Source of the DNA: a virus | Taxonomy: Duplodnaviria; Heunggongvirae; Uroviricota; Caudoviricetes | Length of the DNA: 26,146 nucleotides | Virus record (IMG/VR): IMGVR_UViG_2695420651_000027 | Strand: one strand, 5' to 3' | Shown here: in pieces, positions 13,586-26,146 of the stretch | How positions within the stretch are numbered: position 1 is the stretch's first letter | How the letters are laid out: each line of letters opens with the position of its first letter | Position numbers and translations under genes: made by a program | The notes under the pieces: generated by a model | The model's database searches: none | What the model was told of the DNA's origin: nothing | Seen by the model: the letters and a program-made list of their open reading frames with translations, nothing else

Positions 13586-14619
13586 TGGGAAAGAGTAAGA
13601 AGAACCGCGCTGCGGCGACGAAACAGATCCAGCTTAAAAGTCAAACTACAGCCGAAGCATTCAGCTTCGGCGATCCCGTTCCTGTTCTGGACCGCCGAGA
13701 ACTGCTGGATTATGTGGAATGCGTACAGATGGACCGCTGGTATGAGCCGCCCGTCAGCTTTGACGGACTGGCGCGCACCTTCCGCGCTGCCGTGCATCAT
13801 AGTTCCCCGATTGCAGTAAAGTGCAACATTCTGACCAGCACCTACATCCCTCACCCGCTGCTCAGCCAGCAGGCTTTTTCGCGTTTTGTGCAGGACTATC
13901 TGGTTTTTGGTAACGCCTACCTGGAGAAACGCACGAACCGCTTCGGTGAAGTTATCGCCCTTGAGCCTGCACTGGCAAAATACACCCGACGCGGGTTAGA
14001 CCTGGATACCTACTGGTTTGTGCAATACGGTATGACAACCCAGCCGTATCAGTTCACGAAAGGCAGCATTTTTCATCTGATGGAACCGGATATTAATCAG
14101 GAGATCTACGGCCTGCCCGGTTATCTTTCTGCCATTCCGTCAGCCCTGCTCAACGAGTCCGCCACGCTGTTCCGTCGCAAGTATTACATTAACGGCAGTC
14201 ATGCGGGCTTTATCATGTACATGACCGATGCCGCGCAAAACCAGGAGGATGTGAACAACCTCCGCAATGCGATGAAAAGCGCCAAAGGTCCAGGCAACTT
14301 CCGCAACCTGTTTATGTACTCGCCTAACGGCAAAAAAGACGGGCTTCAGATCATCCCATTGTCAGAAGTCGCGGCGAAGGATGAGTTTTTGAATATCAAA
14401 AATGTCAGCCGCGACGACATGATGGCTGCGCACCGCGTGCCGCCGCAAATGATGGGGATTATGCCTAATAATGTTGGAGGGTTTGGGGATGTGGAGAAGG
14501 CCAGTCGCGTATTTGTACGTAATGAATTAACGCCCTTGCAAAAAAGGCTACAAGAGCTGAACGACTGGCTGGGCGAAGAAGTGATTAAATTTACGCCCTA
14601 TATTCTTTCAGAAGAATAA
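13582..14619 (+). CDS. Q: Portal (capsid vertex) protein Q
   Basis: 345-aa ORF, overlaps P stop; P2 gpQ-like. Confidence 0.85.
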   Translation: MMGKSKKNRAAATKQIQLKSQTTAEAFSFGDPVPVLDRRELLDYVECVQMDRWYEPPVSFDGLARTFRAAVHHSSPIAVKCNILTSTYIPHPLLSQQAFSRFVQDYLVFGNAYLEKRTNRFGEVIALEPALAKYTRRGLDLDTYWFVQYGMTTQPYQFTKGSIFHLMEPDINQEIYGLPGYLSAIPSALLNESATLFRRKYYINGSHAGFIMYMTDAAQNQEDVNNLRNAMKSAKGPGNFRNLFMYSPNGKKDGLQIIPLSEVAAKDEFLNIKNVSRDDMMAAHRVPPQMMGIMPNNVGGFGDVEKASRVFVRNELTPLQKRLQELNDWLGEEVIKFTPYILSEE

Positions 14620-14627
14620 TTCCGAAC

Positions 14628-15326
14628 TTATTTGTTTCTTCTTTGTTCACGCCTTGTCTTGGCTTCGATAAGGCGTTGAGGTTCAGTGTAAAGCCGTTCT
14701 AAAAAAAGATAGGTAAAATCTTCAAGATCCTCAGCAGCAGCTTTATCCAAAATACCTTCATGCGCTCCATCATTTCCGTCATCTTTAACGCATTCAGCTA
14801 GTTCCCTTAAAGCTTCAGGCAGTAGATGATTATCAAATAACCACTCCATTCTTAACCCTAGGCTTCTCCTTATTTTTTGCGCAGGCCCTTGCTCCCCATC
14901 AGGAAGAAGTCCTTTTGTGGCATAATCAAGGCAAAGCCTAAACATGGTTGCTGCTGCATTATAACAACCTATAGCCAAACATTTCGCCCCTTCCTCATAT
15001 GCACTATTGATATGCTCAGGTAAGAACTCTGGTGGCTCCTCTACTGCTAAGTCTGCCGGTGATATAGGCCTAACAACCTCTGCAACTTCCTTTAAGCCGA
15101 ATATTCCACTTTCCCAATTATAGCCATCTAAAGTTTTATTTTTCGTTAAAGGTCTGCAAAGAAACATTGTCGTTTTATGACACTCTCGGCAAACACAATA
15201 GACCTCGTACTCGTATGTTTTACCCCCGCCCAATGCATTGTAAACCCTAGTGCAATTCAGCCCATTAACATCAAACGCTATTTTTTGTGATCCACATCGT
15301 GGACAGTCATCCACTAACATAACCAT
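14628..15326 (-). CDS. Hypothetical cargo protein: N-terminal Cys-rich zinc ribbon plus C-terminal DUF4145-like domain; candidate defence gene at the position P2 uses for old/tin
   Basis: 232-aa ORF, GGAGGAG RBS; CPRCG...CVCRECH cysteine cluster; C-terminal motif ...AIGCYNAAATMFRLCLDYA...ELAECVKDDGNDGAHEG recalled as DUF4145-like; AT-rich. Confidence 0.55.
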   Translation of the reverse strand: MVMLVDDCPRCGSQKIAFDVNGLNCTRVYNALGGGKTYEYEVYCVCRECHKTTMFLCRPLTKNKTLDGYNWESGIFGLKEVAEVVRPISPADLAVEEPPEFLPEHINSAYEEGAKCLAIGCYNAAATMFRLCLDYATKGLLPDGEQGPAQKIRRSLGLRMEWLFDNHLLPEALRELAECVKDDGNDGAHEGILDKAAAEDLEDFTYLFLERLYTEPQRLIEAKTRREQRRNK

Positions 15327-15406
15327 GTCAATTACTCCTCCCTATGAAAAAAATGAGTTGAAAAATTGAATATTCACGACTTAAAAAGCTAGGTAATGAC
15401 TCCAAC

Positions 15407-15910
15407 TTATTGATAGTGTTTTATGTTCAGATAATGCCCGATGACTTTGTCATGCAGCTCCACCGATTTTGAGAACGACAGCGACTTCCGTCCCAGCCGT
15501 GCCAGGTGCTGCCTCAGATTCAGGTTATGCCGCTCAATTCGCTGCGTATATCGCTTGCTGATTACGTGCAGCTTTCCCTTCAGGCGGGATTCATACAGCG
15601 GCCAGCCATCCGTCATCCATATCACCACGTCAAAGGGTGACAGCAGGCTCATAAGACGCCCCAGCGTCGCCATAGTGCGTTCACCGAATACGTGCGCAAC
15701 AACCGTCTTCCGGAGCCTGTCATACGCGTAAAACAGCCAGCGCTGGCGCGATTTAGCCCCGACGTATCCCCACTGTTCGTCCATTTCCGCGCAGACGATG
15801 ACGTCACTGCCCGGCTGTATGCGCGAGGTTACCGACTGCGGCCTGAGTTTTTTAAATGGCGGAAAATCGTGTTGAGGCCAACGCCCATAATGCGGGCGGT
15901 TGCCCGGCAT
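15407..15910 (-). CDS. insB: IS1 InsB (expressed as InsAB' transposase by -1 frameshift)
   Basis: 167-aa ORF matching IS1 InsB. Confidence 0.9.
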
Positions 15911-16104
15911 CCAACGCCATTCATGGCCATATCAATGATTTTCTGGTGCGTACCGGGTTGAGAAGCGGTGTAAGTGAACTGCAGTTGCCATGTTTTACGG
16001 CAGTGAGAGCAGAGATAGCGCTGATGTCCGGCGGTGCTTTTGCCGTTACGCACCACCCCGTCAGTAGCTGAACAGGAGGGACAGCTGATAGAAACAGAAG
16101 CCAC
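15829..16104 (-). CDS. insA: IS1 InsA
   Basis: 91-aa [26 protein letters not shown]... identical in pattern to IS1 InsA; A6C frameshift motif at about 15847-15853. Confidence 0.9.
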
Positions 16105-16159
16105 TGGAGCACCTCAAAAACACCATCATACACTAAATCAGTAAGTTGGCAGCATCACC

Positions 16160-16170
16160 NNNNNNNNNNN
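16160..16170. other. Assembly gap (11 N) immediately at the IS1 end
   Basis: N run. Confidence 0.95.
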
Positions 16171-16553
16171 CTTAAGACCGGGTTCGTCCGTTTTAACTAT
16201 TCCCCCGTCACCGTATGTAGCCAGTATTCCTGGGTTTACTCCTTCCCGTGCACTTCCTGCGGCGAGTCCGTCCCCTGTCCATAATTCCATATAGTGTGCA
16301 TGGTCCAAAATTGTGTGTGGCTGCCAATTAAGCAAAGCGCGACCAGTATCAATCCCGCGACTGTCATCCCAGCCACGAATAAATTCACCGCGTAAATCAG
16401 GCAATTTATTGGTCGGGTAAGCCTTTGCCAGTTCCGGGTATTCTTCAGCAGAAAAAGCCGCACCGTTGCATTTCAGCCAGCCTGTTGGCGGAGTGGCGGA
16501 AGGCCACGGAACAGGCACACCAACGGGTAATGCCGAACCTTCTCCCAAACCAA
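16171..16553. repeat. Direct repeat of 1753-2135: tail fibre variable exon A fragment joined to the invertase-proximal crossover site (silent cassette, or alternate-orientation junction)
   Basis: Identity checked over sampled segments at both ends of the two copies with a constant offset of 14418; identity ends exactly after TTCTCCCAAACCAA. Confidence 0.85.
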
Positions 16554-16565
16554 CGTTTATGAAAA
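16540..16565. other. 26-bp invertase crossover site adjacent to the invertase gene (TTCTCCCAAACC AA CGTTTATGAAAA)
   Basis: Quasi-palindromic half-sites around central AA; lies 55 bp upstream of the invertase start, as in gin/cin/hin systems. Confidence 0.7.
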
Positions 16566-16620
16566 TGCAGAGATAACGGCTAACTGGCATCATCTCCGGT
16601 TTTTATTCAGGGGGATGATC

Positions 16621-17187
16621 ATGCTTATTGGCTATGTACGCGTGTCAACAAATGACCAGAACACCGATTTGCAACGTAATGCACTGAACTGCGCGGGATG
16701 TGAGCGGATTTTTGAGGATAAAATCAGTGGCACTAAGTCCGACAGACCGGGGCTGAAAAAGCTGCTCAGGACACTATCGGCAGGAGACACGCTGGTTGTC
16801 TGGAAGCTGGACAGGTTGGGGCGCAGTATGCGGCATCTTGTTACGCTGATAGAGGAGTTGCGCCAGCGTGGTGTGAATTTCCGAAGCCTGACTGACAGTA
16901 TTGATACCAGTACCCCAATGGGCCGTTTCTTTTTTCATGTCATGGGTGCCCTGGCTGAAATGGAACGCGAACTGATAGTTGAACGTACCAGGGCAGGGCT
17001 GGCTGCAGCTCGTGCCAAAGGCAGAGTAGGTGGACGCCGTCCTAAGTTGACCACCGAACAGTGGGCACAGATTGGGCGTTTACTCGAGGCCGGAGAATCA
17101 AGACAGCGTATTGCACTGATTTTTGATGTGGGTGTTTCCACAATTTATAGAAAATTTCCGGCAAATAAGAGTAATGAATCCCCCTGA
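16621..17187 (+). CDS. Site-specific DNA invertase, serine recombinase of the Hin/Gin/Pin/Cin family
   Basis: MLIGYVRVSTNDQNTDLQ (catalytic Ser in the VRVST motif), resolvase fold, C-terminal HTH (GVSTIYRKF); start at second ATG with GGGGG RBS. Confidence 0.9.
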   Translation: MLIGYVRVSTNDQNTDLQRNALNCAGCERIFEDKISGTKSDRPGLKKLLRTLSAGDTLVVWKLDRLGRSMRHLVTLIEELRQRGVNFRSLTDSIDTSTPMGRFFFHVMGALAEMERELIVERTRAGLAAARAKGRVGGRRPKLTTEQWAQIGRLLEAGESRQRIALIFDVGVSTIYRKFPANKSNESP

Positions 17188-24235: not shown

Positions 24236-24454
24236 ATGATGAATTGTCCAAAGTGTGGTCATGCGGCGCACACAAGGAGCAGTTTTCAAGTAACAGAAAG
24301 CACCAAAGAGCGTTACTGCCAGTGCCAAAATATTAACTGCGGGAGCACTTTTGTTACCCATGAAACAGTGGTCCGGTTTATTGTGACACCTGCAGTGATT
24401 GCCACAGCCCCTCCACATCCATTGCCAGGTGGTCAGGGCCATATGAATTTTTAA
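24236..24454 (+). CDS. ogr: Late transcription activator Ogr (zinc finger, Ogr/Delta family)
   Basis: CPKCGHAAH...CQCQNINCGSTF...PHPLPGGQ matches recalled P2 Ogr C-x2-C-x22-C-x4-C pattern; start at internal Met of the longer ORF. Confidence 0.85.
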   Translation: MMNCPKCGHAAHTRSSFQVTESTKERYCQCQNINCGSTFVTHETVVRFIVTPAVIATAPPHPLPGGQGHMNF

Positions 24455-24460
24455 GAAAGA

Positions 24461-24486
24461 GAACCTGCTACGGCAGGTTTTTATTC
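24461..24486. terminator. Hairpin plus T-run between convergent ogr and the WYL-BRCT gene (likely bidirectional terminator)
   Basis: AACCTGC-TACG-GCAGGTT followed by TTTTTATT. Confidence 0.5.
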
Positions 24487-24963
24487 ATCTGGGATCTCAC
24501 CCGTTTCAAGAAAATGTATAAAGCCAGGCTCATCTATGATGATAGTGCCTTTCATCCTGGCTGCCGATACTTTTGATGGGCCTGCATTGTAACCGCAACA
24601 GAGCATCTGAAGGTTTTGGGTTACAGATGTTCTTACCGTTAATCCTTGTTCATTCGCCTTATCAACCAACCTTTCTTTATCTGCTTTCTTAAATCCGGTG
24701 AAACACACATCGAATGTATTTTTTTTCGGACCTGACTGCTTAGTGAGATGTGAGTAGTTTTCGGGGAGGAATGACGCGCATTCCTGAATGGCTTGTTCTT
24801 GTGAATCGTATTGTTTAAGAATGCGGTCTTTTCGGAAGGTTTTTATTCGATCGGTGTTCTTACAAATGCCCTGTATGTGATTTTCGCTATAACTGATGCT
24901 CTGTATTGAGTGAACACCGATACGACCATTTGCATTGATGTAAACAAAGTGAAGTTCTTCCAT
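24481..24963 (-). CDS. Hypothetical cargo protein: N-terminal WYL-like domain plus C-terminal BRCT domain, between ogr and the ssrA attachment region
   Basis: 160-aa ORF with AAGAGG RBS; KTFRKDRIL resembles the WYL signature; C-terminal VCFTGF...GLTV..SVTQ...CCGYNAGPSKVSAAR..GTIIIDE resembles ligase-type BRCT. Confidence 0.55.
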   Translation of the reverse strand: MEELHFVYINANGRIGVHSIQSISYSENHIQGICKNTDRIKTFRKDRILKQYDSQEQAIQECASFLPENYSHLTKQSGPKKNTFDVCFTGFKKADKERLVDKANEQGLTVRTSVTQNLQMLCCGYNAGPSKVSAARMKGTIIIDEPGFIHFLETGEIPDE

Positions 24964-24989
24964 GTCAAACCTCTTTGCATGATTTCAAG

Positions 24990-25028
24990 ATGGCGACAGG
25001 CAAGATGGACGCAAAAGTCTGTCGCCAT
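24990..25028. promoter_or_regulatory. Inverted repeat (10-bp arms ATGGCGACAG / CTGTCGCCAT, 19-nt spacer) upstream of the WYL-BRCT gene
   Basis: Read directly; located 27-65 nt upstream of the minus-strand start codon, followed by TTTT. Confidence 0.3.
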
Positions 25029-25043
25029 TTTGCCGCCACTACC

Positions 25044-25080
25044 TAAGAAAAAGGGGCTACGCTTTCACGTAACCCCTTGA
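25044..25080 (-). terminator. Rho-independent terminator of ssrA
   Basis: On minus strand: stem AAGGGGTTACG / CGTAGCCCCTT then TTTTTCTT, directly after the tmRNA 3' CCA. Confidence 0.7.
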
Positions 25081-25086
25081 TTTATT

Positions 25087-25449
25087 TGGTGGAGCTGGCG
25101 GGAGTTGAACCCGCGTCCGAAATTCCTACATCCTCGGTACTACATGCTTAGTCAGTCTTTACATTCGCTTGCCAGCTGCGGACGGACACGCCACTAACAA
25201 ACTAGCCTGATTAAGTTTTAACGCTTCAACCCCAGGCAGGGCTTCCACGCGATCTCTTTTGGGTTTGACCTCTCTTGATCCCCGTCCTAAGAGCGGAGGC
25301 TAGGGAGAGAGGGCTCTAAGCAGGTTATTAAGCTGCTAAAGCGTAGTTTTCGTCGTTTGCGACTATTTTTTGCGGCTTTTTACGAGGCCAACCGCCCCTC
25401 GGCATGCACCTTGGGTTTCGCAAATCCCGTCGAATCCAGAATCAGCCCC
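25087..25449 (-). ncRNA. ssrA: tmRNA (SsrA), 363 nt
   Basis: Minus strand begins GGGGCTGATTCTGGATTCGACGGG and ends ...GGTTCAACTCCCGCCAGCTCCACCA; matches recalled E. coli ssrA throughout. Confidence 0.9.
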
Positions 25450-25663: not shown

Positions 25664-26146
25664 TTAACGGTGGGCGTTTTTCATGATACGCGCTTTATCC
25701 ACCTGCCATTCGCGTTCTTTGATATCTGAACGTTTATCGTGCTGTTTCTTACCTTTGGCGACGCCGATTTTCACTTTGCACCAGGCATTTTTCCAGTACA
25801 GGGAGAGCGCCACTACGGTATAGCCTTCTCGATTGACGCGACCGTACAACGAATCAAGTTCGCGCTGGTTGAGAAGTAACTTGCGGGTACGGGTAGGATC
25901 GCACACCACATGCGTAGAAGCCACAGCCATTGGCGTGATGTTTGCGCCAAACAGGAACGCTTCTCCGTCGCGCAGAAGGACATAGCTGTCGCTAATATTG
26001 GCTTTTCCTGCGCGCAGGGATTTAACTTCCCAGCCTTGCAGGGCAAGTCCCGCTTCGAACTCTTCTTCAATAAAGTATTCGTGACGGGCGCGCTTGTTAA
26101 GCGCGATGGTCGCTGAACCAGGTTTATGTGCTTTTTTCTTCGTCAT
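25664..26146 (-). CDS. smpB: SsrA-binding protein SmpB
   Basis: 160-aa [31 protein letters not shown]...; canonical smpB-ssrA neighbourhood; start codon is the last three bases of the window. Confidence 0.9.

Follow-up and report, generated by a model that had tools for sequence, protein, structure and literature searches.

A stand-alone WYL-BRCT protein of P2-like temperate phages and its possible role in superinfection exclusion

Introduction

Two small binding domains known from other proteins meet in the protein described here. The WYL domain of CapW binds single-stranded DNA (ssDNA), with the arginines that flank its W-Y-L triad (R164/R168) contacting the ssDNA (PMC11662680), and the WYL domains of DriD and PafBC are reported to bind ssDNA and to sense DNA damage. 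BRCT pockets are defined by a Ser/Thr-Gly pair after strand 1 together with a Lys at the start of helix 2 (PMC10386641), and RFC1's BRCT domain, taken by itself, binds DNA with a recessed 5'-phosphate with a dissociation constant of ~10 nM (PMC9293004). The combination of the two domains was listed by Makarova et al. in 2014 and was predicted to sense ligands within defence systems (PMC4012209). Here we analyse a gene of this kind in a 26,146-nucleotide stretch of viral DNA (Caudoviricetes; IMG/VR record IMGVR_UViG_2695420651_000027), hereafter the window. P2-like temperate phages carry this WYL-BRCT gene for lysogenic conversion (as a moron), and its 160-amino-acid (aa) product is a stand-alone, non-enzymatic protein composed of two binding modules.

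Results

A WYL-like barrel is joined to a BRCT domain

An earlier note, made from the sequence of the window alone, had described this open reading frame (ORF) as extra cargo at the prophage end that encodes a WYL-like N-terminus fused to a ligase-type BRCT module, with neither a helix-turn-helix (HTH) nor an obvious enzymatic domain. The ORF was recovered exactly as described there, 160 aa from an ATG on the minus strand, and the domain assignments were borne out by the analyses that follow. An N-terminus of the form MEE[LM]HFVYINA is kept among the homologues, which supports the ATG start at 24963; the position of the ribosome-binding site is purine-rich in relatives of the gene too.

The AlphaFold model of the whole protein (mean predicted local distance difference test score, pLDDT, 91.7) folds aa 3-52 into a five-strand barrel and aa 85-154 into a canonical BRCT domain, with two helices and a flexible linker between them. 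In the linker region pLDDT falls to 67 (residue block 71-80), and the linker is strongly basic, with an isoelectric point (pI) of 10.3. The N-terminal barrel has the Sm/SH3-like five-strand fold of WYL (PF13280), and its top structural matches in a fold search were CapW, BrxR, PafBC and DriD. The KTFRKDRIL motif noted earlier lies within this barrel at aa 41-49. In the 47-member family alignment used for all conservation counts, T42 is invariant, F43, R44 and D46 are conserved at ~90% (R44 and D46 in 42 of 47 members each), and R47 is kept in 41. The segment TFRKDRI aligns to NFRLDRV of PafBC, and the Arg of this FRxDR motif is probably equivalent to CapW R184 / Ec R200, as judged by motif position rather than by superposition.

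Sequence searches recognise the barrel less readily in this protein than in its relatives. When the PDB was searched by sequence alone with the profile of the N-terminal domain, just one weak PafBC match came back (E=1.2). The protein itself has no Pfam WYL match at E<=10 and scores E=0.027 against the PADLOC WYL profile. Pfam WYL (PF13280) matches four of the 47 aligned homologues (best 1.5e-5) and 26 of 62 longer relatives (best 1.2e-8), and the PADLOC WYL profile matches 35 of those 62.

The C-terminal domain follows the beta-alpha-beta-beta-alpha-beta-alpha order of the BRCT fold. Pfam BRCT (PF00533) scores the protein at 19.9 bits (E=9e-4) against a cutoff of 21.3, and matches 35 of the 47 aligned homologues (best 2.1e-6). 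When the family profile was compared with the PDB, the best matches were the BRCT domains of RFC1 (3.5e-5) and LigA (6.7e-5), in keeping with the ligase-type assignment. The phosphate-pocket motif is present: T89, G90 and K131 are invariant in the 47 homologues, K93, K96 and R111 are conserved, like R44, D46 and R47 of the barrel, in at least 87%, and K92 is conserved as well. Residues of this pocket are probably equivalent to human RFC1 T415/R423/K458, an equivalence that carries no weight in the argument here.

No HTH or enzyme domain was found in Pfam, in NCBIfam or in the AlphaFold model. The protein does not have the winged-helix (wHTH)-WYL-WCX layout, as the barrel starts at residue 3 and the BRCT domain comes after it. 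Membership of the PADLOC family PDC-S48 (E=1.7e-7) was rejected: the match covers the BRCT domain only (positions 334-406 of 411), and ten longer relatives likewise align only over ~320-406 of 411. One relative with five tandem BRCT-like stretches (P0122, 710 aa) reaches 151 bits on PDC-S48 through its repeated BRCTs alone.

The family is broad and mostly stand-alone

A homologue search returned 122 proteins at E<=0.001, mostly 155-175 aa in length. A profile search of 1.84 billion representatives matched 2676 protein clusters at E<=1e-3, so that a chance ORF can be discounted; 203 clusters matched at E<=1e-30, and the family thus extends to hundreds of clusters, counted at 50% identity. The best-scoring matches are mostly stand-alone proteins of ~160 aa. 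Many relatives carry additional N- or C-terminal regions, in which Pfam, PADLOC and PHROG scans found no named domain.

One of these additional regions recurs. An unnamed domain of ~150 aa was found by BLAST in several distant relatives, on either side of the WYL-BRCT module or in a neighbouring gene. It carries a motif around W-A-L-P-x-A-F, has no Pfam or PADLOC match, and occurs in proteins P0121, P0124, P0127, P0130, P0153, P0171, P0174 and P0182 and at loci L013 (5242-6456), L014 (6502-7098), L033 (2174-3163), L048 (4587-5036) and L012 (5443-6489). Outside the P2-like lineages it may serve as an effector or partner; it is absent from the entire genome of the phage to which our window belongs (Cartapus, see below).

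Among complete E. coli genomes, 176 of 5426 (~3%) hold the gene at >=95% identity. Only 28 of 50,697 phage records have it. Of these 28, all but one are P2-like phages of Escherichia, Yersinia, Mannheimia, Burkholderia and Vibrio, the exception being a single Pseudomonas phage.

Two recurrent positions in P2-like prophages

The earlier note had called for a survey of the gene neighbours of homologues in other genomes. We examined 48 loci from contigs representing one genome per species, and this revealed two recurrent sites, both in P2-like prophages, as well as accessory cargo. In the first (position A, that of the window) the gene lies at the att end, convergent with ogr/gpD. This position accounted for 7 genomic loci and for all 80 IMG/VR loci; the IMG/VR scan returned only close relatives at this one position and so added numbers, not diversity. 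In five close enterobacterial relatives the gene lies ~125 bp after ssrA, and in one relative it lies right after tRNA-Trp.

In the second (position B) the gene is on the same strand as the immunity repressor gene and directly 3' of it, as in 18 of the 48 loci; the immunity repressor family forms the largest neighbour cluster (19/48). In many P2-like phages the gap between the two genes is 4-16 bp, with int further on. Mannheimia phage PHL101 has a CI-like ORF35, 4 bases, and then the WYL-BRCT gene (ORF34) followed by three downstream ORFs; the order in Vibrio phage PV94 is HTH repressor, WYL-BRCT gene, gp03 and int; and that in Burkholderia phage FUB5a is repressor, one ORF, WYL-BRCT gene and a convergent D. 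The repressors upstream belong to unrelated types, either 186-type CI (Cartapus, L025) or an HTH with an S24 peptidase (Pseudomonas).

The two positions are related through the circular form of the genome. Circular Cartapus reads cI-int-gp33-attP-WYL-BRCT gene on one strand, and Yersinia phage MLG42 reads cI-int-attP-WYL-BRCT gene, also on one strand. Position A is therefore also on the lysogeny side of the genome, from which it is split off by integration.

In position-B phages one or more variable genes often come next and are followed by int; in six of the seven loci with the order repressor, WYL-BRCT gene, cargo and int, the cargo differs each time. The cargo includes PDC-S20 KAP NTPases, PDC-S39 (DUF7380/DUF4209), a bPH+SHOCT protein and a membrane protein, and no cargo gene is present in locus L027 or in phage MLG42. 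Where the gene occurs outside prophages, GmrSD_N+HNH, AbiTii/AbiGi, Mrr and site-specific integrases are among its neighbours.

Three further observations came out of the survey. Some P2-like prophages carry cargo that differs from phage to phage between the repressor and WYL-BRCT genes and int (the C-int interval), such as a KAP NTPase (L025 and L026), a bPH_3+SHOCT protein or a membrane protein of ~210 aa (L024, 6536-7039; L025, 6487-9164; L026, 6468-7922; L029, 6527-8314; L009, 6546-7160; L011, 6479-7123), and this interval looks like a defence hotspot. Among the IMG/VR loci (L055-L134), several predicted proviruses retain the WYL-BRCT gene, ogr and gpD and then jump to gpA/dam or to cII/cox/C/int; these may be remnants of prophages with internal deletions in which the WYL-BRCT end persists. 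In two metagenome-assembled genomes of marine gammaproteobacteria, a tyrosine recombinase with a SAM_4 N-domain lies ~0.5 kb from a stand-alone WYL-BRCT gene (L014, 4521-5507, minus strand; L022, 4382-5428, plus strand). Its N-terminus is possibly integron-integrase-like and the WYL-BRCT gene there possibly a gene cassette.

The gene is cargo at the ssrA end of prophage Cartapus

The window covers the right-hand part of Cartapus (Peduoviridae, Elveevirus), a prophage of E. coli LF82, along with the host smpB-ssrA locus. The 160-aa protein is 100% identical to Cartapus gp32, and the 636 bases surrounding its gene are 100% identical to LF82 and to phage record NC_070909. The gene has ogr on one side and, on the other, the ssrA 3' end that the phage carries (Table 1). 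The earlier view of it as extra cargo is upheld by comparison with P2, since the P2 interval between ogr and the attP core contains only a terminator and P-arm sites for Int and for integration host factor (IHF).

Table 1. Features at and around the WYL-BRCT gene. Window positions equal positions in the Cartapus phage record + 1668.
Feature	Position	Strand	Basis
ogr, convergent with the WYL-BRCT gene	24236-24454	+	phage record annotation
Bidirectional terminator hairpin serving both ogr and the WYL-BRCT gene	24462-24479	.	terminator scan, sequence
Coding sequence of the 160-aa WYL-BRCT protein (Cartapus gp32, YP_010664004.1)	24481-24963	-	ORF list, ATG start
BRCT domain, LigA/RFC1 class, aa 85-156; pocket T89, G90, K92, K93, K96, R111, K131	24496-24711	-	
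Two short helices (aa 55-73) and flexible basic linker (aa 74-84)	24712-24801	-	model secondary structure
WYL-like five-strand beta-barrel, aa 1-54	24802-24963	-	
Motif KTFRKDRIL, aa 41-49, inside the WYL-like barrel	24817-24843	-	
Ribosome-binding site AAAGAGG, 6 nt 5' of the ATG	24970-24976	-	read from sequence
Inverted repeat on the attP P arm, probable integrase arm-type sites (TGTCGCCAT)	24986-25032	.	repeat search
Rho-independent terminator for ssrA, phage-supplied, 12-bp stem and T run, between ssrA and the WYL-BRCT gene	25051-25078	-	terminator scan
att core, 45 bp common to phage attP and the ssrA 3' end	25087-25131	.	window vs phage record
ssrA (tmRNA), integration target	25087-25449	-	ARAGORN, RefSeq annotation
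smpB, upstream of ssrA	25664-26146	-	ORF list, RefSeq annotation

The sequence of the window is identical to the circularly permuted phage record up to 25131 and departs from it after that point, which places the att core in the last 45 bp of ssrA. The terminator between ssrA and the WYL-BRCT gene is identical in the phage record and conserved in relatives. In the lysogen, both the 45-bp end of the tmRNA gene and its strong terminator (25051-25131) are phage DNA. The WYL-BRCT gene lies directly 3' of ssrA, whose transcription is among the strongest in the cell. Elsewhere in the window, at ~15391-17187 (Cartapus record 13723-15519), a tail-fibre assembly gene with inverted duplicate tail-fibre/assembly fragments lies beside a Gin-like DNA invertase; the phage record annotates this segment as host-range switching.

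An inverted repeat ahead of the gene probably belongs to attP

The earlier note had also reported an inverted repeat with 10-bp arms in what it took to be the promoter region of the gene. The repeat itself is real, and longer: its 14-nt arms (24986-24999 and 25019-25032) are 93% complementary across a 19-nt spacer, and the perfect 10-bp core ATGGCGACAG/CTGTCGCCAT falls within them. A reading of the repeat as an operator did not fare as well. Across 22.6 kb of phage the 9-mer TGTCGCCAT has exactly three copies, each of them within attP: two make up the repeat on the P arm and one lies on the P' arm; GCCGCCA adjoins on both arms. The proximal arm with GCCGCCA (25019-25039) is kept in five other ssrA-integrated relatives, and the distal arm is not; the proteins of the relatives that lack it are ~70-73% identical. 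P2 has an Int P-arm site at the equivalent place. Because TGTCGCCAT is confined to attP and only its core-proximal copy is conserved in relatives, the repeat is more likely to be a set of integrase arm-type sites than an operator. We therefore rejected the operator, whose distal arm is not conserved and whose 9-mer recurs on the other att arm.

The predicted fold of the leader RNA is strong (-51.7 kcal/mol, z -5.6) and comprises the terminator, a hairpin formed by the repeat and a small hairpin that may cover the ribosome-binding site. Given this predicted fold, a second, regulatory role of the repeat is possible. Four of the relatives without the distal arm of the LF82 repeat (L003, L004, L006 and L007) carry a different near-perfect palindrome, AACGTCTtAGACGTT or a variant, ~30-15 nt 5' of the ATG and before the ribosome-binding site (alignment A4, columns ~143-160). 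Some dyad element before the WYL-BRCT gene may thus be a shared feature despite the difference in sequence.

Expression in lysogens has been reported. In the RNA-seq data of Misson et al. 2023, the Cartapus 'putative exonuclease protein' (LF82_783) is a moron transcribed 15-fold over the local prophage background in LB-grown lysogens (PMC9928086). Among the 32 record features listed, gp32 is the sole Cartapus gene with that product name. In the prophage, the gene would presumably be transcribed either by ssrA read-through or by way of a weak promoter within the 85 bp that separate the ssrA terminator from the ATG.

Discussion

Superinfection exclusion as the preferred reading

We tentatively favour, at somewhat less than an even chance, a reading in which the lysogen-expressed protein binds ssDNA and 5'-phosphate DNA ends and acts in superinfection exclusion. 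By analogy with CapW, DriD and PafBC, the WYL barrel would bind ssDNA, and the BRCT domain would use its Thr-Gly/Lys pocket to hold the 5'-phosphate of a duplex end, nick or gap, as reported for the RFC1 BRCT on its own. Joined by a flexible basic tether, the two domains could jointly recognise the junctions between single- and double-stranded DNA that, with nicks and gaps, would mark foreign DNA as it is injected, replicates or recombines. Occupation of such intermediates would hinder a superinfecting phage, a rex-like exclusion or defence with no dedicated partner in Cartapus. Exclusion is favoured by the defence-type neighbours, the site behind the repressor, the independence of repressor type and the occurrence outside prophages; on this genomic context the function is plausible.

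Several observations weigh against this proposal. The position of the W-Y-L triad is occupied by H29-I30-Q31 (family consensus [HY]-[ILF]-Q), flanked by N28 and G32, and the two ssDNA-contacting arginines of CapW are absent. As both the triad and the CapW-type flanking arginines are missing, ssDNA is not assured as the ligand. The whole protein is near neutral and its BRCT domain is acidic (pI 5.3), charges that, going by sequence, would suit a broad DNA-binding face less well than a local phosphate pocket. No validated defence model matches the protein, and there is no consensus sigma-70 promoter between the ssrA terminator and the ATG. The gene is kept while the adjoining cargo varies, and it could equally have a role in the lysogeny biology of the phage itself. 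A binder of nicks and gaps could also be harmful to host replication. In the literature we found no phenotype or functional study of any family member, and searches linking BRCT with anti-phage, phage defense or prophage found nothing relevant.

Alternative readings

An unlikely alternative is that the protein senses DNA damage or ssDNA for the prophage's own switch. Made together with the repressor, it would act on CI or on Int-Cox and tune induction, excision or the maintenance of lysogeny, by analogy with immR-immA-int of ICEBs1 and with ssDNA sensing by DriD and PafBC. The placement of the gene 4-16 bp behind the repressor and before int in many P2-like phages, its constancy while downstream cargo changes, and the one-strand order cI-int-attP-gene of circular Cartapus and MLG42 all fit this role, and WYL domains are established sensors of ssDNA damage. 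However, the repressors that precede the gene are of unrelated types, including a 186-type CI without a peptidase, and some are LexA-like S24 proteins that already sense RecA*. The gene also occurs outside prophages with no repressor near, beside restriction/Abi genes or site-specific integrases, and its rarity in phage records (28 of 50,697, with P2 itself lacking it) also counts against this role. It is likewise distinctly unlikely that the protein is a free-standing sensor of ssDNA/5'-phosphate junctions in the immunity operon that couples damage, or the replication intermediates of an invader, to the lysis-lysogeny switch of the prophage or to cell fate. Such a sensor would be independent of the SOS response, would run parallel to DriD/PafBC and would act through protein-protein contact rather than an HTH.

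Decidedly doubtful, too, is a signal-responsive regulator or adaptor of an adjacent variable defence gene, resembling CapW or BrxR with a BRCT domain in place of the HTH. WYL regulators accompany many defence systems (PMC4012209; PMC11662680), the next gene differs in six of the seven repressor-gene-cargo-int loci and is in several of them a defence candidate, PHL101 has its three downstream ORFs, and some relatives have the unnamed ~150-aa domain fused or adjacent. In the window, however, nothing co-oriented lies downstream, and the gene ends at the terminator shared with convergent ogr; L027 and MLG42 do without cargo, the ~150-aa domain is missing from the whole Cartapus genome, and the protein has no sequence-specific DNA-binding domain.

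Quite improbable, in our estimate, is a decoy or sponge, whether a mimic of the LigA BRCT that competes at nicks or for LigA partners or a two-pocket sink for a nucleotide-type immune signal (anti-defence). A small protein made of binding modules only, with a conserved phosphate pocket in an otherwise acidic BRCT and sequence affinity to the LigA BRCT, could serve this purpose, and nucleotide-like ligands were originally predicted for WYL (PMC4012209). The lysogeny-operon site and the reported expression in lysogens nonetheless suit a host-protecting moron better than early lytic anti-defence, and no signalling defence system is consistently nearby.

The earlier note had further suggested that the protein might be the sensor half of a system with its partner elsewhere, for which the natural candidate is gp33 (401 aa), the second unexplained moron of Cartapus. 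This gene lies outside the window at the opposite prophage end, between int and attP (locus L001, 12797-14002, minus strand); its annotation reads 'RES protein, NAD+ binding', but Pfam and PADLOC scans gave no match. Its identity is 100% with the protein of Salmonella phage RE2010, 47% with that of SopEPhi and ~30% with SPbeta YopC. A split two-gene system joined over attP on circularisation is very hard to credit. Circularisation does place gp33 and the WYL-BRCT gene in the same orientation with attP alone between them, and one IMG/VR contig has gp33 directly upstream, but the ssrA terminator separates the two genes and they do not travel together: none of the 48 WYL-BRCT loci has a gp33 homologue, MLG42 has the WYL-BRCT gene without gp33, and RE2010 and SopEPhi have gp33 homologues without the WYL-BRCT gene. 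We therefore rejected gp33 as the partner, and the missing co-occurrence already largely refutes a split system. With gp33 not conserved alongside the gene and the ~150-aa fused domain absent from Cartapus, the suggestion of a partner elsewhere did not hold.

The names given to the gene in databases point to an enzyme. Cartapus has it as 'putative exonuclease protein', phages 500465-1 and PHL101 have it as 'DNA ligase', RefSeq uses 'hypothetical' or 'BRCT domain-containing protein', and phrog_2561 of PHROGs carries the label 'DNA ligase'. The matches behind the enzyme labels cover only the C-terminal BRCT and are far under the family cutoffs (TIGR00575, LigA: 20.9 bits against 444, positions 547-650 of 652; NF004719, DEDDh exonuclease: 26.4 bits against 389, BRCT tail 229-307 of 331), and the labels are accordingly unfounded. 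An enzymatic function has next to no likelihood, for the 160-aa model is a barrel and a BRCT and nothing else, too short for an NAD-dependent DNA ligase and without adenylation domain, OB fold, Zn finger or helix-hairpin-helix, or, for an exonuclease, a DnaQ-like domain with DEDD motifs. Whichever functional reading holds, the wrong labels 'DNA ligase' (PHROG 2561, several RefSeq phages) and 'exonuclease' are spreading.

Comparison with known systems

WYL sensing of ssDNA has so far been shown only inside transcription factors, and the WYL-BRCT family is a widespread version without the DNA-reading head, in which WYL is joined to a BRCT of the type that binds DNA ends and phosphate and is carried in the lysogeny module of temperate phages. 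If exclusion by the occupation of DNA intermediates is correct, it would be a minimal, effector-less defence and would add to the lysogenic-conversion genes of the P2 type (old, tin, fun); if the protein tunes induction instead, the P2/186 switch would gain a new input. These possibilities are easily tested, as the ~3% of complete E. coli genomes that have the gene include that of the Crohn's-associated strain LF82.

The closest relatives of the N-terminal domain are the wHTH-WYL-WCX regulators (CapW, BrxR, PafBC and DriD), which have the same small WYL barrel with a conserved FRxDR motif and a common link to phages, defence islands and DNA-damage sensing. Unlike them, the WYL-BRCT protein has neither wHTH nor WCX, carries H-I-Q at the triad and has BRCT as its partner domain; lacking wHTH and WCX, it cannot work as a classical transcription factor. 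Its C-terminal domain has the same fold as the BRCT of LigA and RFC1 and keeps both the Thr-Gly motif and the Lys with which helix 2 starts, but it is acidic and has no ligase or AAA+ clamp loader attached. With PDC-S48 the protein shares a C-terminal BRCT, the remainder of PDC-S48 being unrelated.

In its genetic setting the gene resembles lambda cI-rexAB and P2 old/tin/fun: it is an accessory prophage gene with reported expression in the lysogen, and many of its relatives lie right behind the repressor. It differs from the rex-like position in that int, gp33 and attP separate it, in the window, from the repressor, and its product is related to Rex, Old or Tin neither in sequence nor in fold. 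The fusions of Makarova et al. 2014 contain the same domain pair (PMC4012209), where the architecture was listed only, without function, phage context or lysogeny-operon position. The WYL+BRCT architecture is thus already known; its consistent phage context is new.

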